This document shows positions 11,503-46,165 of a stretch of 64,000 nucleotides of DNA, one piece after another. Below the pieces are notes generated by a model, which was given only the letters and a program-made list of their open reading frames with translations, had not been told where the DNA came from and ran no database searches. The translations under genes were made by a program, and so were the position numbers. The stretch covers positions 64,542,001-64,606,000 of the forward strand of contig OX597824.1 in the NCBI GenBank assembly GCA_951406725.2. The letters are read 5' to 3'. Position 1 is the first letter of the stretch. Every line of letters starts with the position of its first letter. Source of the DNA: Octopus vulgaris (taxonomy: Eukaryota).

Positions 11503-12207
11503 TTAGAGAATTATACATATATGTTTTGATTTGCGATGTTTAGGTGTTGCTTTATTATCACAGGGATTTTCATCATTATTTGTGTTTGATGATGAGGAAT
11601 TATTTACATCTTCAGAACTTTTAACATCTTGAACAGGAATACTTTCAGTCTCTGGGATTATTCCTTCATTAAGTTCATTATTCTCATTCTCATTTTCATT
11701 TGGTAAATTTTCTGTGCTAGGCTCATTTCTTGCTTCCTCATTTAAAATATTTTCTGTGTCTTCATCATCTACAGAAATCTTGAGTGCCATGTCATCCATT
11801 GTTGTACTGGAACTCTTGTTGCCTGCCTCAGAGTTTTGGTTTGTCATTCCATTAGAAAATCTTTTTACACAGCACACACTAACTGAACTGTTACAATCCA
11901 ATCCATTATTATCATTTACTTCAGTACTGTCTTCTACTTTTCCATCAAATCCGTTCCTGCTTTCCAAGTTTTCCTCCACCAAGGTTATTTTAATTTGGGT
12001 ATCTTCTTCTTTTACTTGTACATTTTCTTCTTTTTCTTCTTCTTTCCTAATATTAGTTTCTTCTTTTTCATCTTCTTCCCCTTTCTTATTTACTTCTTTC
12101 TCATACTTATTATCTTCTTTTTCATCTTCTCTCTCTTTCTCTTCTTTCTTATTTTCTTCCTCATGAACATCATCATCACTTTTTTCTTTCTGCCATGTTA
12201 TAATACA
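11503..12207 (-). CDS. Terminal exon: E/K/N-rich disordered tail ending in polybasic + CaaX ([16 protein letters not shown])
   Basis: Lies within ORF 11503..12246; polypyrimidine tract + caag acceptor in phase 0 (an alternative in-frame ggcag acceptor lies 18 nt downstream). Confidence 0.8.
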   Translation of the reverse strand, partial: CIITWQKEKSDDDVHEEENKKEEKEREDEKEDNKYEKEVNKKGEEDEKEETNIRKEEEKEENVQVKEEDTQIKITLVEENLESRNGFDGKVEDSTEVNDNNGLDCNSSVSVCCVKRFSNGMTNQNSEAGNKSSSTTMDDMALKISVDDEDTENILNEEARNEPSTENLPNENENENNELNEGIIPETESIPVQDVKSSEDVNNSSSSNTNNDENPCDNKATPKHRKSKHICIIL

Positions 12208-13231
12208 CTTGAAAAAGAAAAAAATAAAAGAATTACAAATAACCACTCATTATTTAAAGAAAAATATTGACAAATTAATATTGATAATTAAATATATTTT
12301 AATTGTGCCAAAGTTCTGGCTGATATTAGGAATTGGTATTTTCCATGTCAAAATTGTTGTTGTTCATATTGTTCTTGTTTAGCCCCAGGTTGACTTTGAT
12401 TGAACAAACCTATAATTAAAGGTGCAGAAGAGTCAGAGGCATATGACATAGAAGAAAATTGGAAGTCCTTATGGGATAATCAACTGATGGCAACAGACAA
12501 AGTCTGTGGTTGGAGCAAAGATTCTGCCAGATCAAAGGTGATATGGTGGTGGAATAGTGAAGTCAACAGAGCCATAAAAGAAAAGCGATGGGTTTGGAAA
12601 GAATGGGAAAACTAATATTTCTGCCAATCTGACATCATAGACTGATAGCTTATATTATCAACCCCAGAAAGATGAAAGATAAAGATGACTTTGATAGGAT
12701 TTGAACTCAGAGGGTAAAGAGCCAAATTAGTACCTCAACACATTAAGGTAATTTGTCTATTGCCTTAATGACTCTGCCAACCTTATTACCTCATATACAT
12801 GTGACCACAGGGGAAAATATTAACAAGAAAGGTGAAGCTTACTTCAGGGAAGAAAGTACTGGAAAACCGTTTAGTTGAGGATTATTGAAATGCAAAAATA
12901 GGTTTAAAAATTGTTTTCATTAGTAGAAAGTTTCTTCACTTACTTCTTCTAAAGACAAAACTTGAGTCTCTTCTGGTTGTATGTTAAAAAGATTAACAAG
13001 ATTTCCCTTATTATCTGAAGATCTGAAAGAAAATAATTTAATGTAAACATGTGTGTTTTTTCTACATACATACGTACGTACACACACACACACACCACAC
13101 ACCACACACACACACACACACACTCAGTCTCTATTCACCAAATCCACCCACAAGACCCTGGTCAGCCTAAGGCTATAATAGAAGACACCTGCCCAAGGTG
13201 CCGTGCAGTAGGACTGAACCCAGAACCACAG

Positions 13232-13275
<44 letters not shown>

Positions 13276-14369
13276 TTTTACAACAAGAAATAACAACCAG
13301 ATTATCCTCGAAATGAAGAGTAATTCTTGTTGACTTAGTCCTAGCTGCACTGTATGTGAAAAATCCAATAGACTGCCATTTCTACCTCTCTACTGCTCTA
13401 ACAATAAATAAATACATAAATAAATATATAAAATAATTAATAAATCAATTAAATAAAAAGATTTATATCTTACTTTGCTGAAACTGAAGAAATAATATCT
13501 AAAGCTAATTTCTGCAAAGCCATATATTCAGGAATTTCATATGAATATTTTCCACATATTTCTGAAACAGTGACAGTAACCATACCCTTTGTATTTACAT
13601 ATTTACCCCTCTTTGTATGCCAGCAGCTGTCACTAAACACTACATTATAGGGTAAAATTTGAAAATATGAAAGGAATGTTGGTATTTTTTCAGTACAGAC
13701 AAAATGCAAAAGTCTCTGTTTCGATTTCCGTTGACGATTGAAAGCTATGTTTAGTTCCTCAAGAGATTTTGAAGATTCAAAATAATCATCACACACAAAC
13801 ATTACAATTACATCTGCTTCTTCAAGTAAAGCCAATCTGTCATGAATTGATGTGCTGAAGAGAAGGACCTGCATCTCTGAGAAAAGATCTTGAAGAATTG
13901 AAATCAAAATGGCAGCAAATTTCATATCTTGGGGTGCAAAACAAAAGAGTATTTTGCATGGTTTTTTATAAATATCATAATCCGCTTTAGCAGTTATCTT
14001 TTTTCCCTTGAGTTCGTAATTATCTTCAAGTTCAATTTGTCTGAGAAGTGATAATTGATCCAAGAGAGTAATATTTCCATTGTTCAACTGTGAAATAAAA
14101 GAAAAAGAGATAATTAAATTATAAATGTCTCGCTCTTCAATTAAAGGAAGGAAAATAATGATAATTTGCAATATCTTTATTGTTTATTCATTACTTGTTT
14201 CAGTCATTGGATTGCAACCATGCTGGGCACCAAATTGAAAGATTTAGACAAAGAAATCAACCCCAGTACTTTTTTAAAACCTGGTACTTATTCTATCAGT
14301 CACTTTTGCCAAAACATTAAGTTATGGGGACATAAACAAACCAAAATAAAGACACACATATATGTATAG

Positions 14370-16774: not shown

Positions 16775-19700
16775 TGTAAATATATACATATATATACACA
16801 CACACATATATACATACATGTACATATATACATATATAAATATATATATTATATGTATGAAGGTATATGCAAGTGAAGTGTGTGTGTGCATGCATGTGTG
16901 TGTGGGCATGCGTGTGTGTGCATGTGTGTGTATGTGTGCTTGTGTGTGTGAGAGAGAGAGAAAGAGAGAGAGGAAGAGAGAGAGAAAGAGATATGACACA
17001 CTTACTTTGCTTTTACTCGTCATCCAACTAAATTCATGTTGCAAAGTTTGGTCTTTGTAGCATTTATTTAGAAGAGGTGATAAGCAGCTCAGAACAGGAA
17101 CCAAACAATCTCCCCGGGCATCTATCATATGTAGAGGACCAAACCACTGAGGTGTTGACGGCACATCATCAATGCAGACAGGTACCAAAACCATAGGATT
17201 TGTCTGAAATGAACAATTAAATTGATTAATTCATTAACATTCAAGTGAAATGGTCATCAGAAGCATAGTACATGTTACAAAGTCATGCTCACTTGCAAGT
17301 GATGGTTTTGGTATGTCTATATTTTTTCTGAAAAATCCTCATAAGAGATTGATATATACAACTCAAATTATAAACTGACAGTAATTAAGAGTTCAGTTAA
17401 TAATAGATCGTTAAACTCTAACGTAATTAAATTGCAGTAAATCCAAGTGGGATGACATGCAGGTATATACATAATCAGCTAAAATGATCTTTAAGAGCAA
17501 ACATATTTGGCAGAAATGGAGAAAAGCATATATTTTACATATAGTTCACACTTTAATTGTATTCAATAGCTGTTTCATAATGATAAACATCATTGAATGT
17601 ATAATTACATAATTGTCATACACAATTAATTGATTTGAGTTAAATTAAATTAATTAGTTCGTTTTTGGATTTGGTTTGCAAGATTCTTTATATGAGTTCG
17701 TGTGTTGAAGCATATTCTATTGTGTCTGGGGAGAGTCATTTTCTTTTTGTGCCTTATAATGTAACACACGCACCGGTAAAAATTCCACTTATTTCTTATT
17801 TTTATTTTCCTAAAATTTTCGTTGCATCTTGCAACCTTTCCAACAGTCTTGACTCTGTCCGTTATTTACACTGCGTTCCTTTTTGTTTGTGCGCATGTGT
17901 GCGGGTCAGTGTGTTTGTGTGTGCCTATGCATGCATGAACGTATGTATGTGTGTATGTATGTATGCATGTGTATGTATGTATATATGTGTGTGTATGCAT
18001 ATGTATATATGTATGTATGTGTGTGCATCTGTATGTATCCTATAAATTACCATTATGTAAGTATACTTTTTCAGAAACGAATTTTCAAAGTGATGTCTGT
18101 AAATCAGAGTATTTTTCTCAACTTGAACATAGCAATGACACATTTCAATGGGTGTTCTCTTCAACAGTCTTCAAGTGATATTCTTGAGCTAGGCTAAGGA
18201 TTAAGTCTGAAACTTATTTTATCAACTGGATATAAGGTCCTAACCACTAGCCTGTTGTCCTGAAGGACAATTGAGTTATTCTTTTAGTCTCAAACACTTG
18301 TATTTATATTTTAGAGTTGAGTGTGAGGATGTTGGGTGTTTGTTGTGTTTTTGTTACTGCTCTGGTTAAACCTTCTTAGACATACTACATGTGGGATGAA
18401 CCAATTATGGAGCTTGTATGTGGTCATTTGGTCAGATAGAAATAGCAATCAAATGTTCTTTGAATCTCATTCTTCTATCTAAAGAAAAAAAATGGATCTG
18501 TTGGACAATGCAAACCTAGATACGCAATGTCTGACAAAAAATATGGAATGATCATTTCTGGTATGTGTTTGATCAAAGGTAGGATCTCTGATCAAGAATC
18601 ATCTAGAGATAAATAGCACTAACACATAAGGAATTTGGAAAACTCCAAGAAGTCATATTCTTAGTGAGACCAAGTACATTATTCCAGTAATGGCAGACTT
18701 CCCAAAGATTCTGCTTTGTATTCTTTTAGTTTTTCATCTTACACATTCCCCTTTTTAGTGTAGCCAAATCTTCCTCAACAAATTTTCACTCCTAAATTTT
18801 TGGCTTACACAGAAATAGCAGGTGGAATATTTAAAAGGTGACCATAAAATAACCAGATATAAATAGAACAGTAGGATGTGACAAAGTAACACATTTTTGG
18901 TTAAATTACCTTACAAGTACATGCAGGCAATTGGGAAAATATTCAACAATTTACTGAGAGACAAACAAAACAAAACAAAAAAAAAACATCTCAACTTAGT
19001 CATCAGCACTGAGGAAGTATCAAACTTCAAAATTGCAGAACCATACATAACCTCTTTGTCTATGATGTACAAAATCTTAATGTTAACTTTAGTGCAATAA
19101 AAAGCATACTTCAAAAACAGAAAAGCTGCTGTAAGGACTTATGTGGATGTAACGATGAGTCATTATTTAACAAATTCATAACTGAAGAACTCAAAAATCT
19201 ATCTGATCCTTTCACTTAGACACTTCTGATGAAATTGTGGTAATAATTACTGATATTATTACTATAACTATACATGCTATATTTACTACTGTTATTATTA
19301 CTACAGCTGGAGGCACAATGGCCCAGTGGCTAGGGCAGTGGACTTGCAGTTGTAGGGTCACGGTTTCAATTCCCAGACCGGGCGTTGTGAGTGTTTATTG
19401 AGCAAAAATACCTGAAAGCTCCACGAGGCTCTGGCAAGGGGTGGTGGTGAACCTTGCTGTACTCTTTTGCCACAACTTTCTCTCACTCTTTCTTCTGTAG
19501 ACCTGCTCACTTAGCCAGCAGAGTGGCATCATTTGAAGGCTAAAACAATGCAAAGCGCATTGTGACCAGTGATGTGTAGCAACATCTTTTTTTTTTTTTG
19601 ATAGCCTGGTCGATCACATGATCACGTGAATATTACTACAGACAGTTGAAAACGAGGCTTAGAAGTGGTATCTAAAACATGGCTGTCTGCTGACTGGCAA

Positions 19701-22587
19701 GGTTCATGACTAAAGCTACAACTGATGGGTACTGTCCTCTTGTTCTTAGAAAAGTAAAGTCTATTTACAGCCAATCTTTCCAGCCTTCTGTATCAATGAA
19801 ATTGAGAATTGTTACACTACGACAGAAATATTTTACAGATATGTTTCAATTAATTTAAAAGATAATGAAGAATTGTAAGCATTTAATTATTAACCAATCT
19901 GTCTTTATTTTTATGCCTGGTGTTTGAAATCTAACTTTAAAAAATAAGATTCATTAAATAAAGTTTTGATAGATGGTTTTAATTTAAATATAGGTTTCAA
20001 ATTCTGGCACAAGGCTAGCAAGTTCAGAGCAGCGGTGTAAGTTGATTACACCAACTCCTGTGCTTAACTGGTACTTATTTTATCAACCCCAAAAGGACGA
20101 ACGGCAAAGTCGATATCAGCGGAATTAGAACTCAGAACATGAAATTTCACCCAGCATGTGAACAATTCTTTCAGCTTACAGCTTTGTTTTAATTTAAATA
20201 TCAACATTTTAAAATGTCAGTGTTTGTATCACCAAAACATAAGACAATTTTGTGTTAGGGTGGGTAGGTTGGTTATCAAAAGGGTTAAACAGTAGAACAA
20301 AAAAAACTTAAAAACAAAATTAAAAAAATTAATCACAAGGGTTTTCTCACTCTTTCTTCAGAGATACTCAAAGCAATGGCAATACTGAATTCTTCTTGGC
20401 ACATAAGAGATTCGAAGTATGCTGGTGCAATGAGGATGACACAGCATTTAGAACATTCCAAAGCTTTGTAGATGGATTGCTGCCAATCACTACCTGAAAT
20501 ATAATAAAGAACAAATATGTATTTATTGATTACACTAGCATGATAAATAGAGACAATTGGTTGACTTTTAAAGAACAGAGATATCTATTGATGGATTATA
20601 AATTCTGTTGAGTTTAGGAGTTGTGCTGTTCACTCATCTTCAAAAGGCTCTCATAGGGCAGAATAAGAGTAACTACAACTAGGTATTAAACCTAGATCAG
20701 CAGCTTGGTGCACTGGGAGTTCAACGACTGCCTCTGACACTACCATAGATATGTCATTGAGAGAACTGCTACATGGTCACTTGATCTACATGAAACAACA
20801 GTCAAATCTCCATCAAATCACCTTTAAACTAGAAGACATGTTGAATAATATAATCTTAGATAACACATCTGATAAAGTGTCTAATTAACAGTCATTAAAA
20901 TGCTGGATAGAATTCTCTGTAACCCAAGTTCAAATCTGTCCGAGGACAACATTGCCCTTCATCCTTTCAGAGTCATTAAACAAATCCCACTCCAAAGTTG
21001 TGGATCAGCAGATCTGTAAGAATGTTAGACTGGGATGCCTTATAGTAGTTGTTCTGGATCGTTGTCGTCATCGTCGTCGTCATCATCATCACCATCAGCA
21101 GCAGCAGCAACAGCACCACCACCACCAACAACAACAACACTGACAATGTCATTAGTAGTGTCTACTCGAGAGGGGAAGAACTTATCCAAAGTTGTTATAC
21201 ATTAATGGCACACCATCTGTTTGCACAACTCAATATAGAGAGTGAACTTATTATGAAGTCCTCTTGTAATTTTAATGTTATGTTCACATTTAGAATTGCA
21301 GACCTTCAGCTATAATATGGCCAATCCTTTAACCATATTCTTTTCCTCAGTCAACAGGAAGTGGTGGAGCTGCATTATCAACTTCTTGCCCTGCAGTTTA
21401 CTCTTATTTTTTATCAACATCAGCTCCACATTAGATAAAACTTATTAAATCATGTTTTATGCAAGTTCAAACCAGTCATATCCAACCCAAATATTCTACC
21501 TGTTTTATGTTAAAACCAGTGAGATCAAGTCTCTCACACCTACCCTGTAATGTTATTCTAAAAGTAAACAGCTACATCAGTGAAATCCTGAAACTATGAG
21601 ATATCATCATTATTATCATCATCATCATCATCATTGTCATCGTCATTTAACGTCCTCCTTCCATGCTGGCATGGGTTGTACAGTTTGACAGGAGCTGGCC
21701 AGGCAAAAGAGCCTGCACAATGCTTCTGTGTCTGCTTTGGCATGGTTTTTATGGCTGGATGCCCTTTTGAATGCCAACCACTTTACAGTGTGGACTGGGT
21801 GCTTTTTAAGTGGCACCTGCACTAGCAGGGTCACCAAGTAACTTTGCAAGAAAAGGAATTTTTGAGAGAGGAGGGGGAGTTGGAGGAGATGATCTTGTGT
21901 CAGATGATGAAAGGTTAGAGTGTGACAGAGAGACAGAAATAAATGTACATGGTTACCCAGCCAGAGAGAGAGAGAGAGAGAGAGAGGGAGAAGAAGAGAG
22001 GGAAAGAAAGAAAGTGAGAGTTAACAAAAATGAAGGCGGCAGAAATACATGATTAATTCAAAGCAAGTGAAGCCACATGGTTTAGTGGTTAGGGTATTTG
22101 GCTTACAATCGTAAGGTCATCATGAGTCCAATTCCCATTGATGCATTGTGTTCTTGAGCAAAACACTTTATTTCACATTGCTCCAGTCCACTCACCTCGC
22201 AAAAATGAGTAGTACCTGTATTTCAAAGGGCAAGCCTTGTCACACTCTGTATCACGCTGAATCTCCCTGAGAGCTACATTAAGTGTACACATGTCTGTGG
22301 AATACTCAGCCACCTGATCATTAATTTCATGAACAGGTTGTTCCATTGATCAGATCAACTGGAACCCTCATTGTCATAAACAACAGAGTAAGTGCCAATT
22401 CAAAGCAATATGAATGAATAAACAGGCATAGGAGTGGCTGTGTGGTATGTAGCTTGCTTACGAACCACATGGTTCCGGGTTCAGTCCCACTACGTGGCAC
22501 CTTGGGCAAGTGTCTTCTACTATAGCCTCGGGCCGACCAAAGCCTTGTGAGTAGATTTGGTAGACAGAAACTAAAAGAAGCCCGTCG

Positions 22588-22620
<33 letters not shown>

Positions 22621-25600
22621 ATGTTTGTGTGTCTGTGTTTGTCTCCCCAACATCGCTTGACAACCGATGCTGGTGTGTTTACGTCCTCATAACTTAGCGG
22701 TTCGGCAAAAGAGACTGATAGAATAAGTACTAGGCATACAAAGAATAAGTCCTGGGGTCGATTTGCTCAACTAAAGGCGGTGCTCCAGCATGGCCACAGT
22801 CAAATGACTGAAACAAGTAAAAGAGTATTAAATCTAATTGAGTATTCTGAATGCTAAATGGTTAATCATACCTGTCTCCAATTCCAATTTATCGTAAAAT
22901 ATCTTCAAGTCACTATTGTGTTCAGTCAAAATTTCATATACTACTTTCATTTCTTCTGTGTTTTTTGTAGGGTAAGACACAAAAATATCATATGTTGTTT
23001 TCTTAGATGTTTGTGCTTGAGCAGTTGTGGGACGCAGTAATGATGGAAGTAGCTTCTTATTGATATCCGCAGAAACACTTCGAAACTTTTCTTTAATATT
23101 TTCATTTTCATTTAATCTAAAGTAAAAAAAAAAAAAAGGTAAAAAACAGCAAGTTCCAATTGAAGAAATAGCCCAGCTATAGGAACCCCATCATATGAGG
23201 GGTAACTTTGGCAGTATACTTTTACCACCATGAGTAATATCAAGAAATATGACACATACTATAATTATAATTCTACTTTAATGAAATTTGTGGGTGCTTA
23301 TCCAAAAGGGTGAAATTAATACTAACTTTAAAAAGAAAAAATATTTATTACCCTAAAATAGAACTAAATAAAACAATTTCTCATTTGTATAATTCCTCCT
23401 GTAACTATTCTGTCATTTACTCTCTCTTTCTCTTTCCTCTTCCTCCTCCTCTTTTGTCTCTGTGATTTTCTCTCTTAATGTGTGTATATGTGCATGTGTG
23501 TGTGTAGCATTCTTCTACTAATTACCTACCACCAAGCCTAGTATGTGAACTCATCCTGTACCCCTTATGTTAACTCTTTCTGTATCACTCTTTCACTTAC
23601 TGTCCACTTTCTCTCAATGATGTAAAGTATGATTGGTAAAATCAACCACCCAACATTTATATCAGTTATTATTATACAGATATTTATGAGCTGGCAGTAT
23701 CATTAGCATCCAGGCAAAATGCTTAGTGACATTTTATCCATCTTACATTCTGAGTTCAAATTCCACTGCGATCAACTTTACCTTTCATCCTTTGGGGGTC
23801 AATAAATTAAGCACTAGTGAAACACTGGGGTTGATATAATCAACTAGTCCCTTCCCAAAAATTTCAGGCCTTTGCCTTTAGTAAAAAAGATTATTATATT
23901 GATGTTTTAAATACAGAAACACAAAAATAAAAATGTGTACAAGAAGAAACTTACCGACAATCCATATATTGTATGTTACTTATAACTGGGGGTAGATTTT
24001 CCATTGTCTCAGTATACAGGGGAACCAAAATAATATCTTCAGCTTGTCGTCTATAGCAGAGAGCCATATTGAATTCATCTTGGCAGGATTTGGAACTTAA
24101 GTAGGATGTAGTTAAAATTATAACAATGCTGTTGGTAAAGAAGAATGAAGGATTTTAGATAATTCACTTCTGTGAATGATGATTTCTTTACAAGCTAACA
24201 AAGAAACCTCTAGATGGCCACTCAACTATCTAGAAATATCAACCAAATCTCTCTCAAATCAGATTTTCCTCCTCCTTGTCATCATTTTAATGTCCACTTT
24301 TCCAAGCTTCATGGGTTAGACAGAGTTTACTGAGGCAGATTTTCTCTGGTCAAGAACCCTTGCTTTCAACAACCCTTAATCATTTCTAAGCAAGGTTGTA
24401 CTTCTCTATAGCCAAACATGTTTGCACAGAATACTGGAAATGAGATAACACTGCTTGTATGAGAGTGACACTCATTTACAATTATTATGTGATGTCAAGA
24501 GAAGGCAACACATAGACACACACACACATTCTTTTATTCTTTTACTTATTTCAGTTATTTGATTGTGGCCGTGTTGGAGCACTGCCTTAAAAGGATATTT
24601 AGGAAGGGTATCCAGCCATAGAAATCATGCCAAATCAGACTGGAATCTGGTGCAGCCCCTCAGCTTGCCATCCCTGATCAAATTGTCCAACCCATGCCAG
24701 CATGGAAAACAGATGTTAACTGATGATGATGACGATGATGATGATGATGATGATGATGACGTTGTTGTTGTTGTTGTTCACATTATTGTTGCTGTTGTTG
24801 TTTAGCCCCAAGTAAGCTCTGATTGAGCACATTTATGATCAAAGTCATTCAATCCATGACCATCCCATTCTTTTATTTGTCTAGGACTAACATTGTCTAA
24901 TGTATCCTTTATTTAAAGATGGCAGGATTTGATATGAGGGAGATTTGGCTACAATTTCTAGCAGGTAGAATGTTCTTGTAAAGGCTCTCTCAATAACTGT
25001 CCATAGTACATAGCAGAAATGGTAACACTTTGCAGTATTGAAGTTCATACAATTACATTATGAGTTGTAATGCCACATGGGTTCCTTCTATTTTCTATCT
25101 TACCAGTGTCCAATGTATTAAGTAATGATGTTTATTAAACTGACCACCAAAATTTGTGGCCTTGCTTTGTATCAGCAAAAAATAACATTATATTAAATAT
25201 TTAATACTGAGAAAAATAAGAAAAATAGAATTACCACTTGCATCCAAACATACAAGAGTATATTTTTTCAGGCCAAACATCTCCGTCAACTTTTATCCTT
25301 TTATTGAAAATACTTATGCTTGGATTATTCTTTTCCAATGAAGCTTTTAACAAATTTGCCTTCTTAGAATCTGTATTGCAGTAGGAAATATACACATCGT
25401 TCACATGATTTTTTTTGGCAATCTGTAAAAAAAATTAAAAAGTAGTCATAACAACAATCATTGTTTAAAGTAAGCCATCATGCTTGATACCTCCTAGACA
25501 AGTATTGGCTTGGCAGACTGCATTAGCTGTGGGCTTAAGATGTAAAACTGGCACTTCATCAGTTACGCTGATGAAGGCTTCTGTCGGTTGGTCTAACCAA

Positions 25601-28600
25601 TGGAACAGCCTGCTCGTGAAATTAACATGCAAGGGACTGAGCACTCCACAGACATGCATACTCTTGATGTAGTTCCCAGAGGGATTCAGTGTGACACAGA
25701 ACATGAGAAGGCTGGCCTTTGAAATACAGGAACCACTCATTTTTGCCAGCTGAGTATACTGGAGCATCATGAAATGAAGTTTATTGCTTAAGGACACAAT
25801 GACACAATGCACTGCCAGTAATCAAACTCATGACTTTACGATCATTGGCTGAATATCCCAATCACTTAGTCACACACGTTCACCGATGTGAAAGAATGGG
25901 TGGCAATTCAACCTGTATACCTTTGAGAAAAGCTCCAAACTGATGACACAGATGAGCTTTTGTCAGGGAACTAAGTAGGAGTTATTCATTAATCTGATGA
26001 TGCAAGAAGGGAGAATTCATTGTTTCAACGAAGAGTACGTAGTAGCCATTAGAGCATCATTGGTGATACACAATAGTAGGAAGGAAGGCTGTGTGCTAAA
26101 CTGAAAATGACCTCGCTAATGATAATGTTTCCATATTTACATATGTGTGGAGGCTCAATGGCCCAGTGGTTAGGGAAGCGGACTTGCAGTTGGAGGATCA
26201 CGGTTTCGATTCCCAGACCGGGCGTTGTGTGTGTTTATTGAGCGAAAACACCTAAAAGCTCCATGAGGCTCCAGTCGGGGTGGGGTGGCACCCCTGTTGT
26301 ACTCTTTCGCTCCAACTTTCTCTCACTCTTTCTTCCTGTTTCTTGAGTAACACTGCGATGGACTGGCATCTCATCCAGCTGGGGGGAACACATATGCCAC
26401 AGAAACTGGGAAACCAGGTCCATGAGCCTGGCTAGGCTTGAAAAGAGCGCATAAATAAATAAATTTACATATGCACTATGAATTGAAATGAAAAATATAC
26501 ATATTATTATGTTTGTGATAATTTAAAGTTTTCACTGAGTAATATAGAAATATTGTTTCAGTTAATTGTATGATAATTGTTCAGAATTGTGACAGGCAAA
26601 TCAAGTACAAAAACATCACATATAGAACTGAGTGACAGGGTTCTGTGTAGTGTCTGAGGTGGTTCTCACATGGAGTTTTATATCTCACTTTCTAGAACCT
26701 AACAATTTAATGCCACCACTGCTGCCAGATGATTTTCATCTACTGCTGATATGTCTCGGTGTTTTTTAATATTATACATCTATAACAGTTGTTTTCTCCA
26801 GACTAATACTACAGTTTATGAGGCTTTCAATGATGTATCTACTTTAAATATGATTCAACGGTTACTATTTTGAACCAATATTGCTTCTGCCACTAATAAC
26901 AAATAATGTAAAAATGTAAGAAAGAGCTATACTACCTTTGAAAGGGTAGATTTTTCCCAGGTTTTCTTCAGCACTTTAAACCTCTCAAGACAATTTTTAT
27001 TGGAATTGCTAATTTCATTTATATTACTAGTGTAAAGTACAATCTTGAAGCTTTTCAAAGGAAGACCAATTTTCATCCAGTTACAAGCTGACTCAACCAT
27101 TGTGTTAAGAACTGGAATATAACCAAAGCCCTACAAAATTAAGAAAAAGAAAAAAAGAGAAATAGAAATATTTTTGTTTTGTTTCCAGCAATTAAGCACC
27201 ATCTTTAGGTGAAGGTATAGCTATGCGGTGAAGAAGTTTGCTCCCAATCAAAGTTCTTTTATGACACATTCTGTGACCTCGTGTGCGTGCGTGTGTGTGT
27301 TTGTGTGTCTCTCTCTCTCTCTCTTCTGTTTTTGATTGTTTAAATTCTTCCTCTGAAGAAGGAGCTGGTTTCTAACAAAGATAGAAAGCTCCATCTTTGG
27401 AATGTAGATAACAAAAACAATGTCACATTTTAAACTTTAGAAAAGTCTTGCATAGTTTTAGTGTTCAGCTTACAGATTGTATTTGTAATGTGTGAATCAG
27501 TTGGTTGATTTCTGTTTCTGAAAACTCAAGATTATCTAGACTACTTACAAAACCAAGTGCTCCAGCTATTATTCATATAAATGTAAATTTGTAATCCGGA
27601 TATAAAATCTGGAGGTTTTGATGCAGTTGTTCATAATTATCTTCTTTTTCTCTGCTTTTCAAAGATATTAACATCAGCTGGACAGCTAACCTCTGTGACA
27701 GCACATACTTTTTCTTGTCTGTCCGAAACAACAATATCCAGCCTGTTATGTTTACATTTGACAGATGTTTTGATGGGAATATTCCACCAGTATTTCTTGT
27801 GTTGATGTTTATGTACATATTCAAATACAGGGAAATACTCTTTATTTATTCCAGGACTGTCTTTTTCCCAAATGGCATTATATATTGGTTTCTGCAACGG
27901 CATGTCACATAGGGAGGTAGTACCTTGATGACAATTTTGGGAGCTGCTAATCACATGTGTGATGTCGTCCACAGAAATATTACATAATCTACATTTACAG
28001 TTGCATCTTGGAACTCCAAGAGCTTCACTGTATCTTTTGTTGATTAGGTGTTTAGCAGTAATCTCCTGTTCTTGGATTGCAAATGCATAGCCTTCAAAGT
28101 ATGGTGTGATGTAGCAGTTGCGAGTCCAAGAGAGGCTTCATGTCAATGTCTCTATCTTATTGAAGTCTTCAAGTAACATACCTATGCATGTTTTTTTTTT
28201 TGTTTTTTTTTTGTATACTTGAGCACTTCCCCTCCAGTCTTCTTTGAAGTAAGCTAAGTAAGCTAGTCTGGCTGATTTGGGGTTGTATGGGAGCTCATCG
28301 GGGGAAGAGTACTTCCTGAAGAGTTCATTTCCAACGCGTAGGATGTTCCCTTCACTTTCCAGCACTAAATTAATGTATTTATTTTGTTGCTGTTGTTTAA
28401 CAAGTGCTGTCTGAGAGAGACTGTGTAACATTCAAAGACTATCTGCACAGAGCACAAGCCCCCTACTTCCTTTATCTCTTCTTAGGCAGAGCCTGTCAAC
28501 ATCACTATTTTTGTAGAGATTTCCAGTTGATGTTAGAATCTTGTGGGTGTTAATGTCTATGAAGTGGATTTCTTCTACAGACCAGTCAAGTATCCCAAAA

Positions 28601-29774
28601 GTTGGAATCAGCACTGGTACTGCAAATGCATTGTGGGATATTGTCTTGTTGTAAAAGGAGAGCTCAGACTGCCATATTTTTCTTAGTCTGGTGTAATATT
28701 CTTGGGTCACTATCTTTATTCACAGTACCTTGGTATGATATATTTTCATCAATGCCTAGGTACCTGTAGCAGTCTTTGTGTGAGACAAGAAAGATAGTAA
28801 GATTATTTTGTGTCTGGGAGATTATCTTTCCCTGTTCAACAATCAAATAATATTTCTTCTGGCCAAATTCCACTCCTATGTCAATTGAAAATGTTATTAA
28901 TTCCAGTTGATTTTTTGGCATTGTTAACATTTTAGCATAAATCCACAAAGAAATCATGGGTTACATTAATATCTCTTGATGTTGCAGACCCTAGCATGTA
29001 GTCATTTGTTTTTTATATCAGGAATGATAATGGGATGGATGGATGTATGTATGCATGCATGCATGTTTATGTGTTTATGTCACCTTGTCTTGACATGACT
29101 AATAAATAATTGCCACTGTCATACAAGCAGTGTCATTCATTTCCGATATTCTGTAAGAATATACGTATGTTCAAGGCAAAACATGACTTTGCTTGGAAAC
29201 AGGTAAAGGTTGGTGACAGGAAGAACATCCAGCTGTAAAATATTTGCCTAAATAAACTCCATCCAACCCATGCAAGCATGGGAAAGTGGACACTAAAATG
29301 ATGATGAAGCTAACAATATATGTGGCTGTGTGGAGATGCAGGCAAAGCTGTGTGGTAGGAAGCTTGCTTCCCAACCACAGTTAGTCTAACTGTGTGGTAC
29401 CTTGGGCAAGTGTCTTCTACTATAGCCTAGGGCTGACCAAAGCCTTGTGAGTGGATTTGGTAGACAGAAACTGAAAGAAGCCTGCTGTATGTGTGTGTGT
29501 CTTTGTGTCTGTGTTTGTTCCCCAACCATCACTTGACAACCAATGCTGGTGTATTTATGTCCCAGTAACTTAGTGGTTCAGCAAAAAAGGCCGATAGAAT
29601 AAGTACTAGGCTTACAAAAAATAAGTCCTGGGTTCGATTTTTTTCAACTAAAATCCTTTAAGGCAGCACTGCAGCATGGCCACAGTCAAATGGCTGAAGT
29701 AAGTAAAAGAATAAAAGAAAAGAATATGTAAGTGTGTGTGTGTGTTTGTGTGTGTGTATGTGTGTGTGTGTGTG

Positions 29775-29805
<31 letters not shown>

Positions 29806-30733
29806 TCTTATTTTGACATCATGTGATGACTGTAAATGTGTAGCACCATCATACAAGCAATATTATTTGTTTCCAATCTTCCATGAAAACAGGTCTTCCT
29901 TTTTATCTACCACCAACAATGAGAGTCATTAAAGCAGAACAGAGCTACTTGAAACATCTCTCATTTGTGAGCTGCATGGTTACTTTGTTAGTGCTGATAC
30001 CATGAATAAAACACCCAGTACACTCAGTAGACTGGTTACTGTTAGCAAGGACATCTAGCTATAGAAACCATTCCAAAATAGACACTTTTAGCATGGTGCT
30101 GTCTTTAGACGTATTGGATATTTTTGAACTGTCCAACTCATGTTAGCATGTTGATGATGATGATGATAGTTAATTAATCCAAGTATTCCATAGAGAATTA
30201 TGTAAGAATACAAAAACTGAATAAAAAGATACTCACTTGGTTTCCAGTACCAAGTAAAGGAGTTATTACTGTTGTGTCTTGAGAATTGAATATTGGCATA
30301 AAACCTCGAAACATATCTCCGATTTGATCATAAATACTACTGCCTAGGTTTCTGTAACATAAAACATGAAATTAATGAAGTTCAATAAAAATAGAAATAT
30401 TTAAAACAATGCCAACTATGAAGGAACTCTGAAAGGATGAAAGGTAAAGTTGACCAAGTGGCATTTGAACTCAGAATGTAGACAAAATGCGTAGCAGTGT
30501 TTTGTCCAGCATGCTAATGATTGTGCCAGCTTGCCACCTTAATAATAATAATAATAATGATGATGATTTCAAATTTTGGCACAAGGCCAGCAATTTCATG
30601 GGAGTGGGTAAGTTGATTACATTGACTTTAATACTCAACTGTTGCTTATTTTATTGAGCCCCCAAAAGGATGAGAGGCAAAGTCAACCTCAGCAGAATCT
30701 GAACTCAGAACATAGAGATGGACTAAATGCCAC

Positions 30734-30800
<67 letters not shown>

Positions 30801-32772
30801 AAGAAGAAGAAGAAGAAGAAGAAGAAGAAGAAGAAGAAGAAGAAGAAGAAGGAGGAGGAGGAGGAGGAGGAGGAGGAGGAGGAGGAGGGTTTAAAATTTT
30901 GGTATATGTTTGCACCCACCCTAGTATTCAGAATATTTGCTGTAGCCCATCTTTTATACCAAAACAAAATAATGTACATAACACTTCCAATCAGTTAAGA
31001 TCAGAAGCCATGAGGGCCAGCGCCTATCAGAAGCCATATTGTTATTATCATCATCATCATCATCATTATTATTATTATTATTGAGAAAAATCCTTGAGGC
31101 AGTGTGGTGAGAAGTTTGTCTCCCAGCCACATGGTTCCAGGTTCATTCCCACTATCTGGGACCTTGGGCAAGTGTTCCGTTACTGATTGAACTTAGCAAT
31201 TTGGTAAAAGAGACTAATAGAATAAGTATCAGGCTTTAGAAAAACATAAGTACTGAGGGAAATTCATTCGACTAAATTCAGCATTGCTGCAGTCCAATGA
31301 TTGAAACAAGTAAAAGATAAAAGATATATTATTATCATTTTTTTCTAAGTCCAGCAATTTTGAGGGGGTGGGGAGTAGAGGATACCATCAATCCAAGTAT
31401 CGTACTTGTTTTTTTATCAACTATGATGAGTGGGAGTGAAGGGCAAAGCTGACCAGGGCAGGATAGAAGAAAAGGATAAAAACTTAATACAAAAAGTAAT
31501 ATTACCTTTCAAAACATGCAAGTCTTGAAAAAGGAATATCTTCTGGTAATGGTTTGGATAACCAACAAGAAAAATATTTCCTTAAATCTAATTCTTTATC
31601 CGCAGCAAGCCTAGAAACATCAACATTTAGATTTTTGTTCAGTGCTTGGATTACAGTTTTACTCGTAGTGTTGTAATTATCTGAAATAAAAGAACATTTG
31701 GGTATAAATTATGAAAGTTGTACAGTTTAAGAGTATATAAAAAGGGGAAACTGAAGAGCAGAATGACAAACAAGTATAGGCTTAGCTGTGTGGTTAAGAA
31801 GTTTGCTTCTCAACCATATGGTTTTAGGTTCAATGCCACAACATGGCACCTCAGACAAGTGTCTTCTGCTGTAGCTATGGGGTGACCACAGCTTGAAGAT
31901 ACAGGCATGGCTGTATGGTTAAGGAAGTTTGCTATGTGACCATGTGGTTTTGGATTCAGTTCCACAGTGTGAAATTTTCTGCAAGTGTCTTCTACTATAA
32001 GCCCTGCACTGACCAAAGCCTGTAGGCCTATGGCTAAGGAAGTTTGCTTCCCAACCATGTGGTTTTGGGTTCAGTCCCACAGCATGGCACACAATGATTG
32101 ATCAATCATACAACACATAACAACTGATCAGTGACAAAAAGTAAAACAACATCTAATGATTGATAAATGATACAAAATCAATGGTTGGTCAATGATTGAT
32201 CAGTGACACAATACTCCATGAATGATCAATGATATAACACATAGTTACAGAGCAATGATACAACATACAATAGACTGATTAGAGATATACTATATAATGT
32301 CTAATGAATGATACAACACAGACTGTGACTGATCCAAAATTCAACATAAAATCACTGATCAATGACACAGACATGATGACTGATCAATGATAAAACATTT
32401 AATGATTGATCAATCATATAACAATGTAACAACACACATTGATTTATCAGTGAGACAATACACAATGATAGATCAATATTTGATTAATGATACAACATTC
32501 ACAATGAAAAAAACAGCAATACAACACACTGACTCCTGTAGCAAGGTTTTTAATGTTTTTTAACCATCTCGTTGCTTAATTTTCAGCCAATTTTAATGTG
32601 AATATTTAATGTTTAGATACTTACTAGGGAAAGCTGACACGATGAGCAAATCAACTTTGTCATTCATCTCAAGACTTGTGATGTCTCCCAGAAGAAGCTC
32701 AATTGTACAAGTACCTTGGATGGTTGAAAGGGACAAAGTTTCAATTGTCTTTAAAACCATTGTTGCAGTTTC
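11503..32772 (-). CDS. Spliced gene: macrodomain-like + 3x TIR + acidic linker + CaaX protein (~988-993 aa; 12 coding exons listed below)
   Basis: Exons 32625-32772, 31506-31680, 30237-30351, 26936-27130, 25235-25422, 23955-24128, 22872-23116, 20351-20493, 17006-17203, 13474-14087, 12944-13022 and 11503-12207. All introns are GT..AG and the phases chain (1,2,0,0,2,2,1,0,0,2,0) into one open frame of 2979 nt ending in TAA at 11503. There is an in-frame ATG at 32760. Confidence 0.88.
12944..13022 (-). CDS. Short penultimate exon
   Basis: tttcag|(K)[26 protein letters not shown]|gtaagt; phase 2 to phase 0. Confidence 0.75.
13474..14087 (-). CDS. Exon: divergent TIR domain 3
   Basis: Lies within ORF 13470..14171: [10 protein letters not shown]...[29 protein letters not shown]...[10 protein letters not shown]; tcacag acceptor and AA|gtaaga donor. 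Confidence 0.85.
14575..15532 (+). mobile_element. Tc1-like transposon remnant
   Basis: [34 protein letters not shown] and WPPQSPDL motifs, with stops; the terminus ccattattttgtccaacccctg-ta also occurs at ~48860-48882. Confidence 0.88.
16382..16722 (-). mobile_element. Short Helitron-like element between (TA)n microsatellites
   Basis: CTAG|T at 16382 and a TCTATATATATAAA 5' end at ~16722. Confidence 0.5.
17006..17203 (-). CDS. Exon: end of TIR domain 2
   Basis: tttcag|[66 protein letters not shown]|gtaagt. Confidence 0.88.
19309..19630 (+). mobile_element. tRNA-derived SINE family C (second copy at 26148-26462)
   Basis: GGAGGCACAATGGCCCAGTGGCTAGGGCAG...GGTTTCAATTCCC tRNA-like head; two homologous copies. 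Confidence 0.8.
20351..20493 (-). CDS. Exon: TIR domain 2 core
   Basis: tttcag|[48 protein letters not shown]|gtgaga. Confidence 0.9.
22072..22400 (+). mobile_element. tRNA-derived SINE family D (also ~25545-25885(-) and 49325-49595(+))
   Basis: TGGTTTAGTGGTTAGGG head and a TGTG(T/C)CTTGAGCAA.ACACTT CORE-like segment; three copies. Confidence 0.7.
22872..23116 (-). CDS. Exon: linker + start of TIR domain 2
   Basis: ctttag|[82 protein letters not shown]|gtatga; YDIFVSY is TIR box 1. Confidence 0.9.
23955..24128 (-). CDS. Exon: TIR domain 1, C-terminal half
   Basis: caacag|[58 protein letters not shown]|gtaagt; YLSSxxCxxE is the TIR alphaC motif. Confidence 0.9.
25235..25422 (-). CDS. Exon: TIR domain 1, N-terminal half
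   Basis: ttacag|[62 protein letters not shown]|gtaatt; DVYISY is TIR box 1. Confidence 0.9.
26936..27130 (-). CDS. Exon: end of macrodomain-like region
   Basis: ttgtag|[65 protein letters not shown]|gtagt; 65 codons, phase 0-0. Confidence 0.88.
27410..28990 (-). mobile_element. Degenerate R4/Dong-like non-LTR retrotransposon (RT C-terminus + restriction-like endonuclease)
   Basis: [35 protein letters not shown], a [13 protein letters not shown] zinc knuckle and [14 protein letters not shown]; many frameshifts. Confidence 0.8.
30237..30351 (-). CDS. Exon: macrodomain-like region (phosphate-binding loop)
   Basis: ttacag|[39 protein letters not shown]|gtgagt; PLLGTGNQG matches the macrodomain PxIGTGxxG motif. 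Confidence 0.9.
30734..30888. repeat. Compound microsatellite (AAT)n(AAG)n(GAG)n
   Basis: Read directly from the sequence. Confidence 0.95.
31506..31680 (-). CDS. Exon: macrodomain-like region
   Basis: tttcag|[58 protein letters not shown]|gtaat; phase 1 to phase 2. Confidence 0.9.
32090..32530. repeat. Degenerate short-period tandem repeat (caatgattgatcaatgatacaaca-like)
   Basis: Recurrent tgatcaatgat/acaacac motifs. Confidence 0.6.
32625..32772 (-). CDS. Exon: start of macrodomain-like region
   Basis: ttattcag|[49 protein letters not shown]|gtaagt; carries the macrodomain GDIT motif. Confidence 0.9.
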
Positions 32773-37710: not shown

Positions 37711-39087
37711 TAATCTTTTCACTAATCTAAAATAATTTAATATTATCATTTAATAGTATTATTTAATATCACACTTACTAATCTAAATAACATAACTTTT
37801 TTGATTTAACATTATCTAATAATGTTATTTAATATTATTTAATAATGATAACTGGAGGAAAAGTATGTATATATGGCCATATATGTATCTTGTGTTTATA
37901 TATATGAATATATATGTATATATATAGTTTTGCTTCTCTATATACTTATTTAAATATCTGTAAATGTGTGTATATTTATCTCAATATACCTATATATGAA
38001 TTTAATTACCTATATACTTCTGCATGTATACTAGAAAACTAGTTCTGGTACACATGTAGGTATATGTATGCATATATGTGTGTGTGTGTGTATGTATATA
38101 CATATATATGCATAATATGTCTGTATCTGTATGTATCTATGTGTATGTAACTATGCATATGTATATGTATGTGGGTGCATATATATCTATCTATATATGT
38201 ATGCACTTGCAGATCTATGTCTATATGTTTACTTTAATATCTGTTTATAAGTGTATTTATATATATCCCAACATGCCTATATATATATTAAATTATTTAT
38301 AATCTTCTGCGTGTGTACGAATATATTAGTATGGGTATACATGTATGTATATATCTATACATGTGTATGTATATGCATATATATGTATGCATGTATGTAT
38401 GTATATGTATATATACAGATATGTTTTAATTGGTATGTATCAATGTGTATGAAACTAAGCATATGTATATGTGTGCATGTGTATATGTATGAACAATGTA
38501 TATGGGTGCATATGCATATCTATATACTTTTCTACTTGCGTATATACACATATACACATGTATATATAGGTATATGATAATTTTTTTTGTGCTTATATAC
38601 TTGTATGCATCCAACCATGCACATTATTGCCTATAATATATATATGCAATTACTTTAATATAATGTATTGTACTTCCAATTGTTAAATATGCGTATTTTG
38701 TATATGCATAAATCTATGTGCATATAGTGTAGCCAGATATTTTTGCACATATGTATGGAAGTATATTTGAGTATATATAAATTATACATTAGTATCTTGT
38801 TATGCTGACCTCTATCTATCTATCATCATCATCATCATCATCATCATTTAACGTCCGTTCTCCATGCTAGCATGGGTTGGACGGTTCAACCAGGGATCTG
38901 GGAAGCCAGAAGGCTGCACCAGGCTCCAGTCTTATCTGGCAATGACTGGATATATACAAATATATACAAATATTCATTTATTATTTTATAAATTCTATAA
39001 ATTATTTTTTTATATATATTATTTTAGCAACTTGTTTTTATAATTATTTTTATAACTATTTTATTTTTATTGAATATTGGCAGAGAA

Positions 39088-40965
39088 GCTTCAGCTAGGG
39101 TTCTCACAAGCAAGGCACATAGGTATAAAATCATCTGGCAAGGTAACACAGATGGAGTAGGGGGTGTAAGCATACTCCTTGTGAAGAAATGGGTGGATAA
39201 GGTCATAAAGGTTGTCAGGGTATGCAATAGAGTGCTTAAGCTCAGGCTAGTACTGCAGAACAGTATAGCTACAATTATCTCTGCATACGCTCCACAAGCG
39301 GGCCTACCAAATGGTCAGAAAGGCCATTTTTATGATACCCTCCTACAGGCTACCTCAAAGAGGAGTGGCAATGACCTCCTTTTTGCAACTGGAGATTTTA
39401 ATGGGCCTGTTGGACGGCAGTTCGGTATCTTCACTGATCTACACAGGGGCCATGGTACTGGTTGCCGAAACGAAGAGGGAACCAGGCTACTGGAGTTCTG
39501 TGATGCATGTAACTTTTTAATCTGCAACACTAACTTCAGGAAGCCAGACAGCCACCTGATAACCTATCTATCAAGTGACTCTAGTAGCCAGATCGATTTC
39601 ATCCTCACCAGACAGCAGGACGCAGGGTTGCTCTTAAATACAAAGACCCTCCCGGGTGAAGAATGTACCCCTCAGCATAGACTAGTCATTAGTGACTTTA
39701 GAATCAAGGCCAGAAGGATGCAAAGATGCAGACCAATCCAGAAAAGAAGTATCTGGAAGCTAAAGAATCCTTCACGTGGTCAGAAATTTAGGGATATCCT
39801 CATCAAGAAATTTGTTGAGAAGGAAGAGACAGCTACAGACCTTGGACATAGAGGGTAGCTGGAAATTCCATGGGTCAGCTTACTAAGAGTGAAAGGTAGA
39901 TTGTACGATGTATGTGTGTGAACTGCCATGCTTCAGGGCAGTGAAACATGGGCCGTGACTGCCTAAGACAAGTGTAGGCTTGAAAGAAATGAAGCTAGAA
40001 TGATCCGCTGGATGTGTAATGTCAGTATGCACACACAACAGAGTGTAGGCGCCCTGAGAGAAATGTTGGACATAAGAAGCATCGGATGTGGTGTGCAAAA
40101 GAGACATCTGCGCTGGTATGGTCATGTACTATGGATGGATGAGGAGAGCTGTATGAAGAAGTGCCACTCCTAAACAATTGAAGGAACCCGTGGTAGAGAG
40201 GGAGACCCAGGAAGACATGGGATGAGGTGGTGAAGCATGACCTTTGAATGTTGAGCCTCACAGAGCCAATGACAAAAGACCGAGACCTCTGGAGATATGC
40301 TGTGACTGAGAAGACCTGGCAAATAAAGTGAGATCACAGCTGCAATCTACACCAGTGTTGCATAACTAGCCCACTCAAAAAGTACCTTTGGATCATAGGG
40401 AAACATGCCATGCTTGAGGAGACCTATTAAGTCAAGTACATCAACATCAAAATCAAATTAAACTACAATCAAATGGAAATTGTAGTTGTGGCCAATGCCA
40501 GCACTGCCTATTTGGCTCCCCATGCCGGTGGCACGTAAAAAGCACCATCCAAACATGGTTGATATCAGCCCCCTTGTCCCAATTGACCACTGTGCTGGTG
40601 GCACATAAAAAGCACCATCTAAACGTGGCTGATGCCAGTGCCGCCTTGACTGGCTCCTATGCCAGTGACATGTAAAAGCACCATCCAAACGTGGTTGATG
40701 CCAGCCCCCTCTGGCTCCTGTACAAGTGGCATATAAAAGCACCACCCAAATGTGGTTGATGCCAGACCCCTCTGGCCCCTATGCCTGTGGCACATTAAAA
40801 GCACTCACTACACTCTCAGAGTGGTTGGCTTTAGGAAGGGCATCAAGCTGTAGAAACACTGCCAGATCAGATTAGAGCTCGGTGCAACCTCAAGGCTTCC
40901 CAGACCCCAGTCAAACCATTCAACCCATGCCAGCATGGAAAATGGACTTTAAACGATGATGATGA
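39088..40965 (+). mobile_element. RTE-clade LINE, internally deleted (APE endonuclease + RT C-terminus + 3' UTR)
   Basis: ORF 39070..39858 has ISAYAPQ, GDFNG, SQIDFIL and QHRLVI; LRVKGRLYD follows; (GAT)n tail. Confidence 0.88.
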
Positions 40966-46100: not shown

Positions 46101-46165
46101 GCCAGATAAAGGCACAGGTGAGAGAGTATATATCAAATATAATTAAAAACAGAACACAAAGGATA

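Follow-up and report, generated by a model that had tools for sequence, protein, structure and literature searches.

A Twelve-Exon Octopus Gene Encoding a Predicted Macro-Fold Domain and Three TIR Domains

The 64,000-nucleotide stretch of Octopus vulgaris DNA analysed here (NCBI GenBank assembly GCA_951406725.2, contig OX597824.1, positions 64,542,001 to 64,606,000 of the forward strand; hereafter the window, with positions counted from its first letter) carries on its minus strand a conserved, uncharacterised macro-triple-TIR gene, whose bacterial counterparts are unusually close. A first-pass annotation, made from the sequence alone, had proposed a four-exon gene for an atypical macrodomain of bacterial descent at this locus. 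We found that the motifs SAFP and W..IGLPL..FKIV are encoded by four minus-strand GT-AG exons (32772-32625, 31680-31506, 30351-30237 and 27130-26936) spliced in frame; the four exons thus stood, and the proposed coordinates agreed exactly with their borders. The proposed extent was incomplete, as the gene continues past 26936 through eight further exons to 11503, giving 12 exons and a single open frame of 988 amino acids (aa). The encoded protein consists, in order, of a macro-fold domain (residues 1-202), TIR1, TIR2, a divergent TIR3, an acidic tail and CIIL before the stop codon. The three TIR domains of the octopus gene itself had been overlooked. Since the gene carries an N-terminal macro domain together with TIRs, its product is itself a macro-TIR protein, in which the TIR is triplicated.

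The sequence SAFP-NNY is created by the joint of exons 1 and 2 (31680/32625; the intron ends read CT..AC on the plus strand), and this joint was present in the contigs of all four transcript-like runs, from four studies; the runs are RNA by guess, and the junction evidence covers this joint only. The ortholog XP_014768475 of Octopus bimaculoides (P0001), found with the exon 2 query, contains the same spliced sequence, with identities of 184/202 over the N-terminal domain and 680/725 over residues 1-725. Pfam TIR_2 matched single exons of the window as well as three stretches of P0001 (E 9.5e-41). Contamination or a recent insertion was ruled out by the 11 spliceosomal introns and by orthologues across animals.

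Exon 1 (32625..32772, minus strand, as are all exons) contains the ATG at 32760 and encodes beta1-beta3 of the macro domain, GDIT (D26) and VSAFP in the place of NAAN; contigs were found in four of the four runs, with full cover in three. Exon 2 (31506..31680), identified from its splicing, contigs and alignment, contributes NNY..TVIQAL, which is without the GGG loop, [11 protein letters not shown] (W85) and RLACFE (E103). Two positions of this exon (31580 and 31601) showed C>T on the plus strand in two of the four runs, probably representing alleles. Exon 3 (30237..30351; splicing, P0001 match and alignment) encodes IGDMFR and the loop 2 sequence PLLGTGNQ, whose Gln we take to fill the site at which an aromatic residue lies in MacroD, and exon 4 (26936..27130; splicing, P0001 match and fold model) encodes the end of the macro domain with W..IGLPL..FKIV. 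TIR1 is divided between exon 5 (25235..25422; Pfam TIR_2 E 0.015 and P0001 match) and exon 6 (23955..24128; E 5.7e-7), the latter with E288 at the catalytic position, a site that is Gln in most animals outside the cephalopods. Exon 7 (22872..23116; splicing and the TIR stretches of P0001) contains a linker and the start of TIR2 (YDIFVSY), exon 8 (20351..20493; TIR_2 E 2.3e-7) its core with WQQ and the catalytic-position E444, and exon 9 (17006..17203; splicing and P0001 match) its end. The divergent TIR3 (E634) lies in exon 10 (13474..14087; TIR_2 E 3.8e-5), followed by a linker in exon 11 (12944..13022; GT-AG, in frame, with a P0001 match). Exon 12 (11503..12207) encodes the acidic low-complexity tail, then basic residues and CIIL, a CaaX motif with predicted prenylation, and the stop codon.

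The N-Terminal Domain Has a Predicted Macro Fold with Altered Loop Motifs

The N-terminal domain matched no macro or family model of Pfam, PADLOC or NCBIfam, the Pfam macro model detected none of six family members, and searches of Protein Data Bank sequences yielded weak macro matches only (best E 0.005). An AF2/AlphaFold model of P0001 residues 1-202, built with 119 sequences, had a predicted local distance difference test score (pLDDT) of 97 and a predicted template modelling score (pTM) of 0.93. Its top structural matches in Foldseek and VIA-align were macrodomains, with a Foldseek E of 2e-9 to macroH2A1.1 and tied VIA Z scores for the second macrodomain (MD2) of PARP9 (17.7; root-mean-square deviation 2.6, 174 residues aligned), macroH2A1.1 (17.6), PARP14 (17.5) and Af1521 (17.1). 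The Z score for the macro domain of Thoeris EcThsA was 12.0. The earlier macrodomain call is thus borne out by the predicted fold (Z ~17, pLDDT 97). Identity to solved macrodomains was 10-18%, by which a standard PARP14/MacroD domain was ruled out. The further claim that the domain is unlike MacroD, PARP9/14 and macroH2A holds for the sequence but not for the fold, the nearest folds being those of PARP9 MD2, macroH2A, PARP14 and Af1521.

The replacement of NAAN by SAFP was confirmed, and the other MacroD features are also absent: there is no triple-Gly loop, and at Gln142 loop 2 (PLLxTGxQ) has a Gln that all 28 eukaryotic rows share. MacroD enzymes use NAAN and the triple Gly to hold the distal ribose, according to the available portion of PMC7729036. 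With these distal-ribose motifs missing, the octopus macro domain is not a MacroD hydrolase. The adenine-binding Asp D26, in GD(I/L)T, is kept in 27/28 eukaryotic and 86/91 prokaryotic rows, and S42, W85 and E103 are invariant in 119/119 sequences, which by this conservation places the macro pocket under selection. Judging from the strand order of the model, we take E103 and S42 to lie at the ends of the strands bordering the distal-ribose site.

Prokaryotic Macro-TIR Homologues Are Rare and Partly Associated with Defence Genes

The bacterial motif string that the first-pass annotation had cited (VSAFP.DY...GLPL..LKIV type) proved to be real, as these motifs were found in fusions of macro and TIR in bacteria. 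The best homologues are not standard eukaryotic macrodomains: identity of the octopus macro domain was ~31-45% to prokaryotic macro-TIR proteins, as against the 10-18% for solved macrodomains, and 38-39% to Trichoplax and 42% to Nematostella. A profile search returned 1,271 clusters at E <=0.001, and among the best 150 most non-animal members were macro-TIR proteins of ~340-440 aa. Loci from the genome scan belonged to Cyanobacteria, Chloroflexota, Planctomycetota, Bacteroidota, Pseudomonadota, Acidobacteriota, Gemmatimonadota, Actinomycetota and two archaeal groups. Prokaryotic copies are sporadic and rare, being found in 7 of 1,450 genomes (3/300 of the cyanobacterial phylum, 0/300 Chloroflexota, 1/300 of the Asgard phylum, 3/250 Planctomycetota and 0/300 Pseudomonadota), a count that leaves out the seed genomes and draws on incomplete phylum samples. 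Plasmid matches were solely to Ralstonia megaplasmids (133 records), and no relative was found in viral contigs (0/57 candidates) or in the phage collection.

The same macro type lies mostly N-terminal to a TIR, and likewise N-terminal to DUF4145, which we take to be HEPN-like, in two cyanobacterial loci and to an ADP-ribosyltransferase in a Ralstonia protein. The DUF4145 fusions (L011:1039-2064 and L013:1486-2607) come from two cyanobacterial-phylum genomes, and a similar Atlas cluster has 55 members. On the Ralstonia solanacearum megaplasmid (L015:5058-7185; 133 records), two adjacent hypothetical genes carry the macro type, one of them fused to the ADP-ribosyltransferase domain (Pfam E 5e-6), and a haemagglutinin gene adjoins. 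The macro-TIR unit was also found fused behind kinase, Hsp70, NUDIX, pYEATS, glycosyltransferase and TPR-S/patatin domains, or beside CHAT. In three proteins (P0054, P0056 and P0069) it stands behind type VI secretion sheath domains (VipA/VipB). In Bacteroidota loci L058, L064 and L073, the macro-TIR gene is flanked by genes for a patatin phospholipase and a second TIR protein, an arrangement that may represent a multi-gene system. Two Asgard-phylum genomes (L047 and L125) and Methanocrinis (L019) carry the gene, each copy grouping with different bacteria.

We examined the genomic neighbourhood with PADLOC, scanning at most three open reading frames (ORFs) per side of 48 loci chosen from L001-L087 after near-duplicates had been thinned. 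Matches were found for 30/267 ORFs as compared with 5/140 control ORFs (p 0.009), and at 21/48 loci as compared with 4/28 control regions (p 0.011); the 28 controls came from the same genomes and had five ORFs per region instead of six, ten of their ORFs were excluded on account of size, and the loci include related ones. When generic classes (Uma2-like, ABC, kinase, TPR and similar) were removed post hoc, 18/267 ORFs and 14/48 loci remained, as against 0/140 and 0/28. Clear neighbours were BREX (L034), DISARM (L039), type I restriction-modification (L048), a SIR2 protein (L051) and AbiU (L052). The association with defence genes is real but partial, with modest enrichment: the suggestion that bacterial homologues might sit in defence islands holds in part, in that matches are enriched but a majority of the loci (27/48) showed no such neighbour.

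Range and Origin of the Eukaryotic Genes

Named eukaryotic members included Trichoplax, cnidarians (Nematostella, Montipora, Porites, Rhopilema and Dendronephthya), a flatworm, an annelid, nemerteans, a brachiopod, bivalves, gastropods, cephalopods, echinoderms and hemichordates, together with haptophyte Pavlovales. Among the best 150 of 1,271 and the best 120 of 321 matches (30 looked up by name), none bore the name of a chordate, ecdysozoan, sponge, ctenophore, choanoflagellate, fungus or plant. Row P0254, labelled eukaryotic at first, took its place among bacteria and was tallied with them. The Trichoplax adhaerens protein (P0202) has two tandem macro domains ahead of three TIRs.

In a careful tree of 40 rows, the 11 animals formed one clade (support 97/97), largely in species-tree order, and a quick tree of 105 rows agreed. 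The patchy metazoan distribution that the first-pass annotation had named as a sign of transfer was not seen; the range is broad (placozoan, cnidarians, spiralians and ambulacrarians) and tracks the species tree. A recent patchy transfer into cephalopods was rejected. Since the animal clade follows the species tree, any transfer must be ancient, and these trees place the event at least as early as the placozoan-cnidarian-bilaterian ancestor. Nesting of the animal macro domain within bacteria, likewise named there, did not emerge, as no bacterial sister group was resolved. In a quick TIR tree of 57 rows, TIR1 and TIR2 joined the TIRs of bacterial macro-TIR proteins, apart from 17 other bacterial TIRs (Shimodaira-Hasegawa-like approximate likelihood ratio test (SH-aLRT) 100). 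This grouping argues that macro and TIR were inherited together. That the macro and the TIR domains are both homologous to those of bacterial macro-TIR proteins speaks for the proposed bacterial descent. Prokaryotes hold the greater diversity, and a nesting has weak support (SH-aLRT 80), both suggesting that transfer was probably from bacteria to eukaryotes.

Divergence of the Tandem TIR Domains and the C-Terminal Tail

We compared the alphaC catalytic Glu position, which we take from TIR enzymology. Glu occupies it in 104/104 rows of the prokaryotic alignment A6, in 38/40 rows for TIR2 and in 30/35 for TIR3. TIR1 has Gln in 28/41 and Glu in 6/41 eukaryotic rows. The octopus protein has Glu in all three TIRs (E288, E444 and E634). 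The Glu of TIR1 (codon at window position 24076) was found in all five cephalopod-clade rows and in Tubulanus, and is probably a reversion. The bacterial C-terminal motif QYxDCR is kept in TIR1, and YDxFxSY and WQ are kept in TIR2, suggesting that the duplicated TIRs may have divided their work.

At the C-terminus, a Cys at position -4 was present in 38/59 animal-type proteins, in 35/43 of those of at least 800 aa, and in 1/158 of the proteins of 300-460 aa. The P0001 gene model is without the terminal Cys; the window protein ends in CIIL with basic residues upstream.

Other Elements in the Window

Elsewhere in the window, a reverse transcriptase ORF, with weak matches to reverse transcriptases, is followed by a GIY-YIG-like ORF (44350-46142, minus strand), and we take the pair to resemble a Penelope element. 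We also noted what we presume to be a fragment like the reverse transcriptase of a long interspersed nuclear element (LINE) inside intron 3 (27573-28960, minus strand), a LINE endonuclease-like fragment (39028-40300, plus strand) and a PIF1/Helitron helicase-like fragment (2200-2748, minus strand), none of the three having a match in the library scan.

A Candidate Ligand-Gated TIR Enzyme and Its Alternatives

Taken together, we tentatively favour, at just under an even chance, the reading that the macro domain, the three TIRs and the CaaX motif make up a membrane-anchored, ADP-ribose-gated TIR NADase, whose gene derives from a bacterial macro-TIR gene acquired once, at the latest in the placozoan-cnidarian-bilaterian ancestor. 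In such a protein, the prenylated CaaX tail would serve as the anchor at the membrane, the macro domain would bind a derivative of ADP-ribose (ADPR) at the remodelled distal-ribose site, and the ligand-bound macro domain would release or cluster TIR2. We infer that TIR2 would likely be the catalytic unit cleaving NAD+, and TIR1, which has Gln in most animals, a pseudo-enzyme scaffold; the output, in innate immunity or cell death, may be a loss of NAD+ or a signal derived from ADPR. Since the C-terminal effector behind the same macro type varies (TIR, DUF4145 or ADP-ribosyltransferase), a sensor role of the macro domain is favoured. A precedent is the type II Thoeris macro domain, which binds a TIR-made ADPR conjugate according to the accessible portions of 10.1101/2024.01.03.573942 and PMC11204291.

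Several observations weigh against this proposal. Both canonical ribose/phosphate loop motifs are lost from the macro domain, so that ADP-ribose binding is not assured, and the pTM of 0.72 for the model of a bacterial two-domain macro-TIR protein leaves a fixed macro-TIR interface unsupported. Among the bacterial loci, 27/48 had no PADLOC match among the nearest genes, and the macro-TIR family is not named by any model of PADLOC or NCBIfam. As to the origin, the trees gave neither a bacterial sister group of the eukaryotic clade nor a resolved bacterial backbone, so no donor can be named; the 57-row TIR tree had no TIRs of animal Toll-like receptors, MyD88 or SARM1; a tree uniting animals with the Lokiarchaeote copy was worse by 29 log-likelihood (lnL) units and was not rejected (approximately unbiased test, p-AU 0.10); and the TIR duplication shared with a haptophyte may push the origin deeper than animals.

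The loss of NAAN had been taken in the first-pass annotation to suggest a ligand sensor rather than a classical hydrolase, a step that is unproven, as PARG (QEE), TARG1 (Lys/Glu dyad) and DarG cut without the MacroD mechanism in the available part of PMC7050489. Since PARG and TARG1 act via other residues, and the macro-TIR family keeps one Glu without exception, losing NAAN does not in itself make the domain a sensor. The macro domain might instead be a non-canonical glycohydrolase that serves as a built-in off-switch, trimming the TIR product or removing ADP-ribose from targets; its invariant E103 and S42 fit this, the macro-ADP-ribosyltransferase fusion resembles writer-eraser pairs such as DarTG, and the fold score of Af1521 is tied with those of reader domains. 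We regard such an activity as quite improbable, however, given the absent triple-Gly catalytic loop and NAAN, a loop 2 Gln in all eukaryotic rows where, in the same part of PMC7050489, hydrolases have G[AV][FY], and the DUF4145 fusion, which offers no obvious eraser substrate logic. A similarly low probability is given to the animal protein being a non-enzymatic, membrane-tethered TIR adaptor or scaffold in Toll-like/MyD88 signalling, with the macro domain as a docking module only. The bacterial enzyme-type YDxFxSY, WQ and Glu retained by TIR2 from placozoan to octopus (38/40), and macro pocket residues that are equally conserved in animals and bacteria, argue against an adaptor, although the Gln at the catalytic position of TIR1 (28/41), the divergence of TIR3 and a lipid anchor suited to a sorting adaptor would accord with it. 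An adaptor or regulator role has also been hypothesised for ecTIR-DC proteins, and SARM1 called the sole NAD-consuming animal TIR, in the portions available of PMC6321704 and PMC13455253, respectively.

The origin has its own alternative, in which the gene was not transferred into early animals but came down within eukaryotes from their last common ancestor, an endosymbiont or Asgard archaea, with losses in all but the invertebrates and one haptophyte. It is suggested by P0112 of Pavlovales sp. CCMP2436, a haptophyte macro-TIR-TIR protein with the animal-type TIR duplication, whose TIR2 groups with animal TIR2 in the TIR tree. Uniting animals with Pavlovales gave a constrained tree 6.7 lnL better, and an SH-aLRT of 93 in the 105-row quick tree, or 99 without two long rows; the existence of two Asgard copies and the unrejected grouping of animals with the Lokiarchaeote copy point the same way. 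On the other hand, the haptophyte position was unstable, lying inside animals in one tree, and this was the one named non-animal eukaryote among the best 150 of 1,271 and the best 120 of 321 matches. Only 1 of the 300 sampled Asgard-phylum genomes was positive, the two Asgard copies stand apart among bacteria, and to some bacteria (up to 45%) the octopus domain shows no less identity than to Trichoplax (38-39%). We consider an ancient eukaryotic inheritance unlikely.

The favoured reading can be extended to a bacteria-derived immune enzyme of invertebrates that works in nucleotide signalling as a single chain. Its macro domain would represent a new macrodomain class, which responds to an ADP-ribose-derived second messenger by activating the membrane-anchored TIR NADase. 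TIR1 would have become a pseudo-enzyme early and regained its Glu in cephalopods, the bacterial gene would by itself make up an anti-phage system not yet described, and the macro domain would be a general sensor module, also placed on HEPN-like and ADP-ribosyltransferase effectors. We consider this extension, taken as a whole, rather doubtful. If true, ADP-ribose-derived immune signalling would extend to animals, a macrodomain class missed by Pfam would be defined, and one more immune gene would have passed anciently from bacteria to eukaryotes. Few animal TIRs are known as enzymes, namely SARM1, with Raw acting on cyclic ADP-ribose. The macro-TIR family is a conserved candidate for an animal TIR enzyme, from placozoans to octopus, with a putative built-in nucleotide-type pocket. 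Its compact bacterial counterpart (340 aa) is suited to direct testing in phage defence, and the natural Gln/Glu switch of TIR1 provides a handle on pseudo-enzyme reactivation.

Comparison with Known Systems

We found no description of the macro-TIR family in the literature, in which subscription journals were thinly covered. The parts available of PMC9503650, PMC8195603, 10.64898/2025.12.03.692087 and PMC13455253 do not describe it, nor does that of 10.64898/2026.04.30.722052, which mentions uncharacterised invertebrate TIR clades.

The family resembles ecTIR-DC 8, a class reportedly established by Gerdol et al. 2017, in being an invertebrate-wide multi-TIR family without a transmembrane region. 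PMC6321704 (Fig. S1) assigns to ecTIR-DC 8 the Trichoplax H2 protein TrispH2_008457, which has 1,082 aa and two TIRs; from its size and domain layout it probably corresponds to the Trichoplax adhaerens homologue (1,015 aa), so that the octopus family is probably ecTIR-DC 8. The figure in PMC6321704 differs in showing no macro domain.

Type II Thoeris, with the TIR protein ThsB and the transmembrane-macro protein ThsA, likewise pairs a TIR with a non-MacroD macro domain that binds an ADPR derivative, as far as the accessible text of its reports goes. It differs in that the octopus and bacterial family is a single macro-TIR polypeptide with no transmembrane region before the macro domain, and the octopus macro fold is nearer to PARP9, macroH2A and Af1521 (Z ~17) than to EcThsA (Z 12.0). 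Scans of the family with the ThsA_Macro Pfam hidden Markov model and PADLOC gave no match; the Atlas feature score to a ThsA-type macro was 0.83, a lead only.

With the reader macrodomains (PARP9 MD2, PARP14 MD2/3 and macroH2A1.1) the octopus domain shares the fold (Z 15-17.7) and the adenine Asp in GD(I), and its loop 2 PLLGTGNQG aligns with PARP14 PAIGTGN. PARP9 MD2 is a reader without hydrolase activity in the available part of 10.64898/2026.08.12.744356. The octopus domain differs from these readers in its identity of only 10-17%, in SAFP and SLIGAL for NAAN and GGG, in the invariant W85 and E103, and in having no PARP or histone domain attached. Bacterial fusions of a canonical Macro (PF01661) with a TIR (Atlas clusters of 57-1,234 members) share the two-domain idea; their macro domain is recognisable by Pfam, in contrast to the Pfam-negative one of the octopus and bacterial family (0/6).

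Finally, SARM1, Raw and Dictyostelium TirBCD are bacteria-derived eukaryotic TIR enzymes that resemble the octopus protein in the catalytic-position Glu and in having bacterial relatives, TirC being an NADase derived by horizontal gene transfer in the portion of its report that was available. The octopus protein differs from SARM1 in that its putative regulator is a macro domain, not ARM-SAM, and in carrying three TIRs in tandem, whose active sites are unequal, as well as a CaaX motif. SARM1 itself is a ligand-gated NADase.

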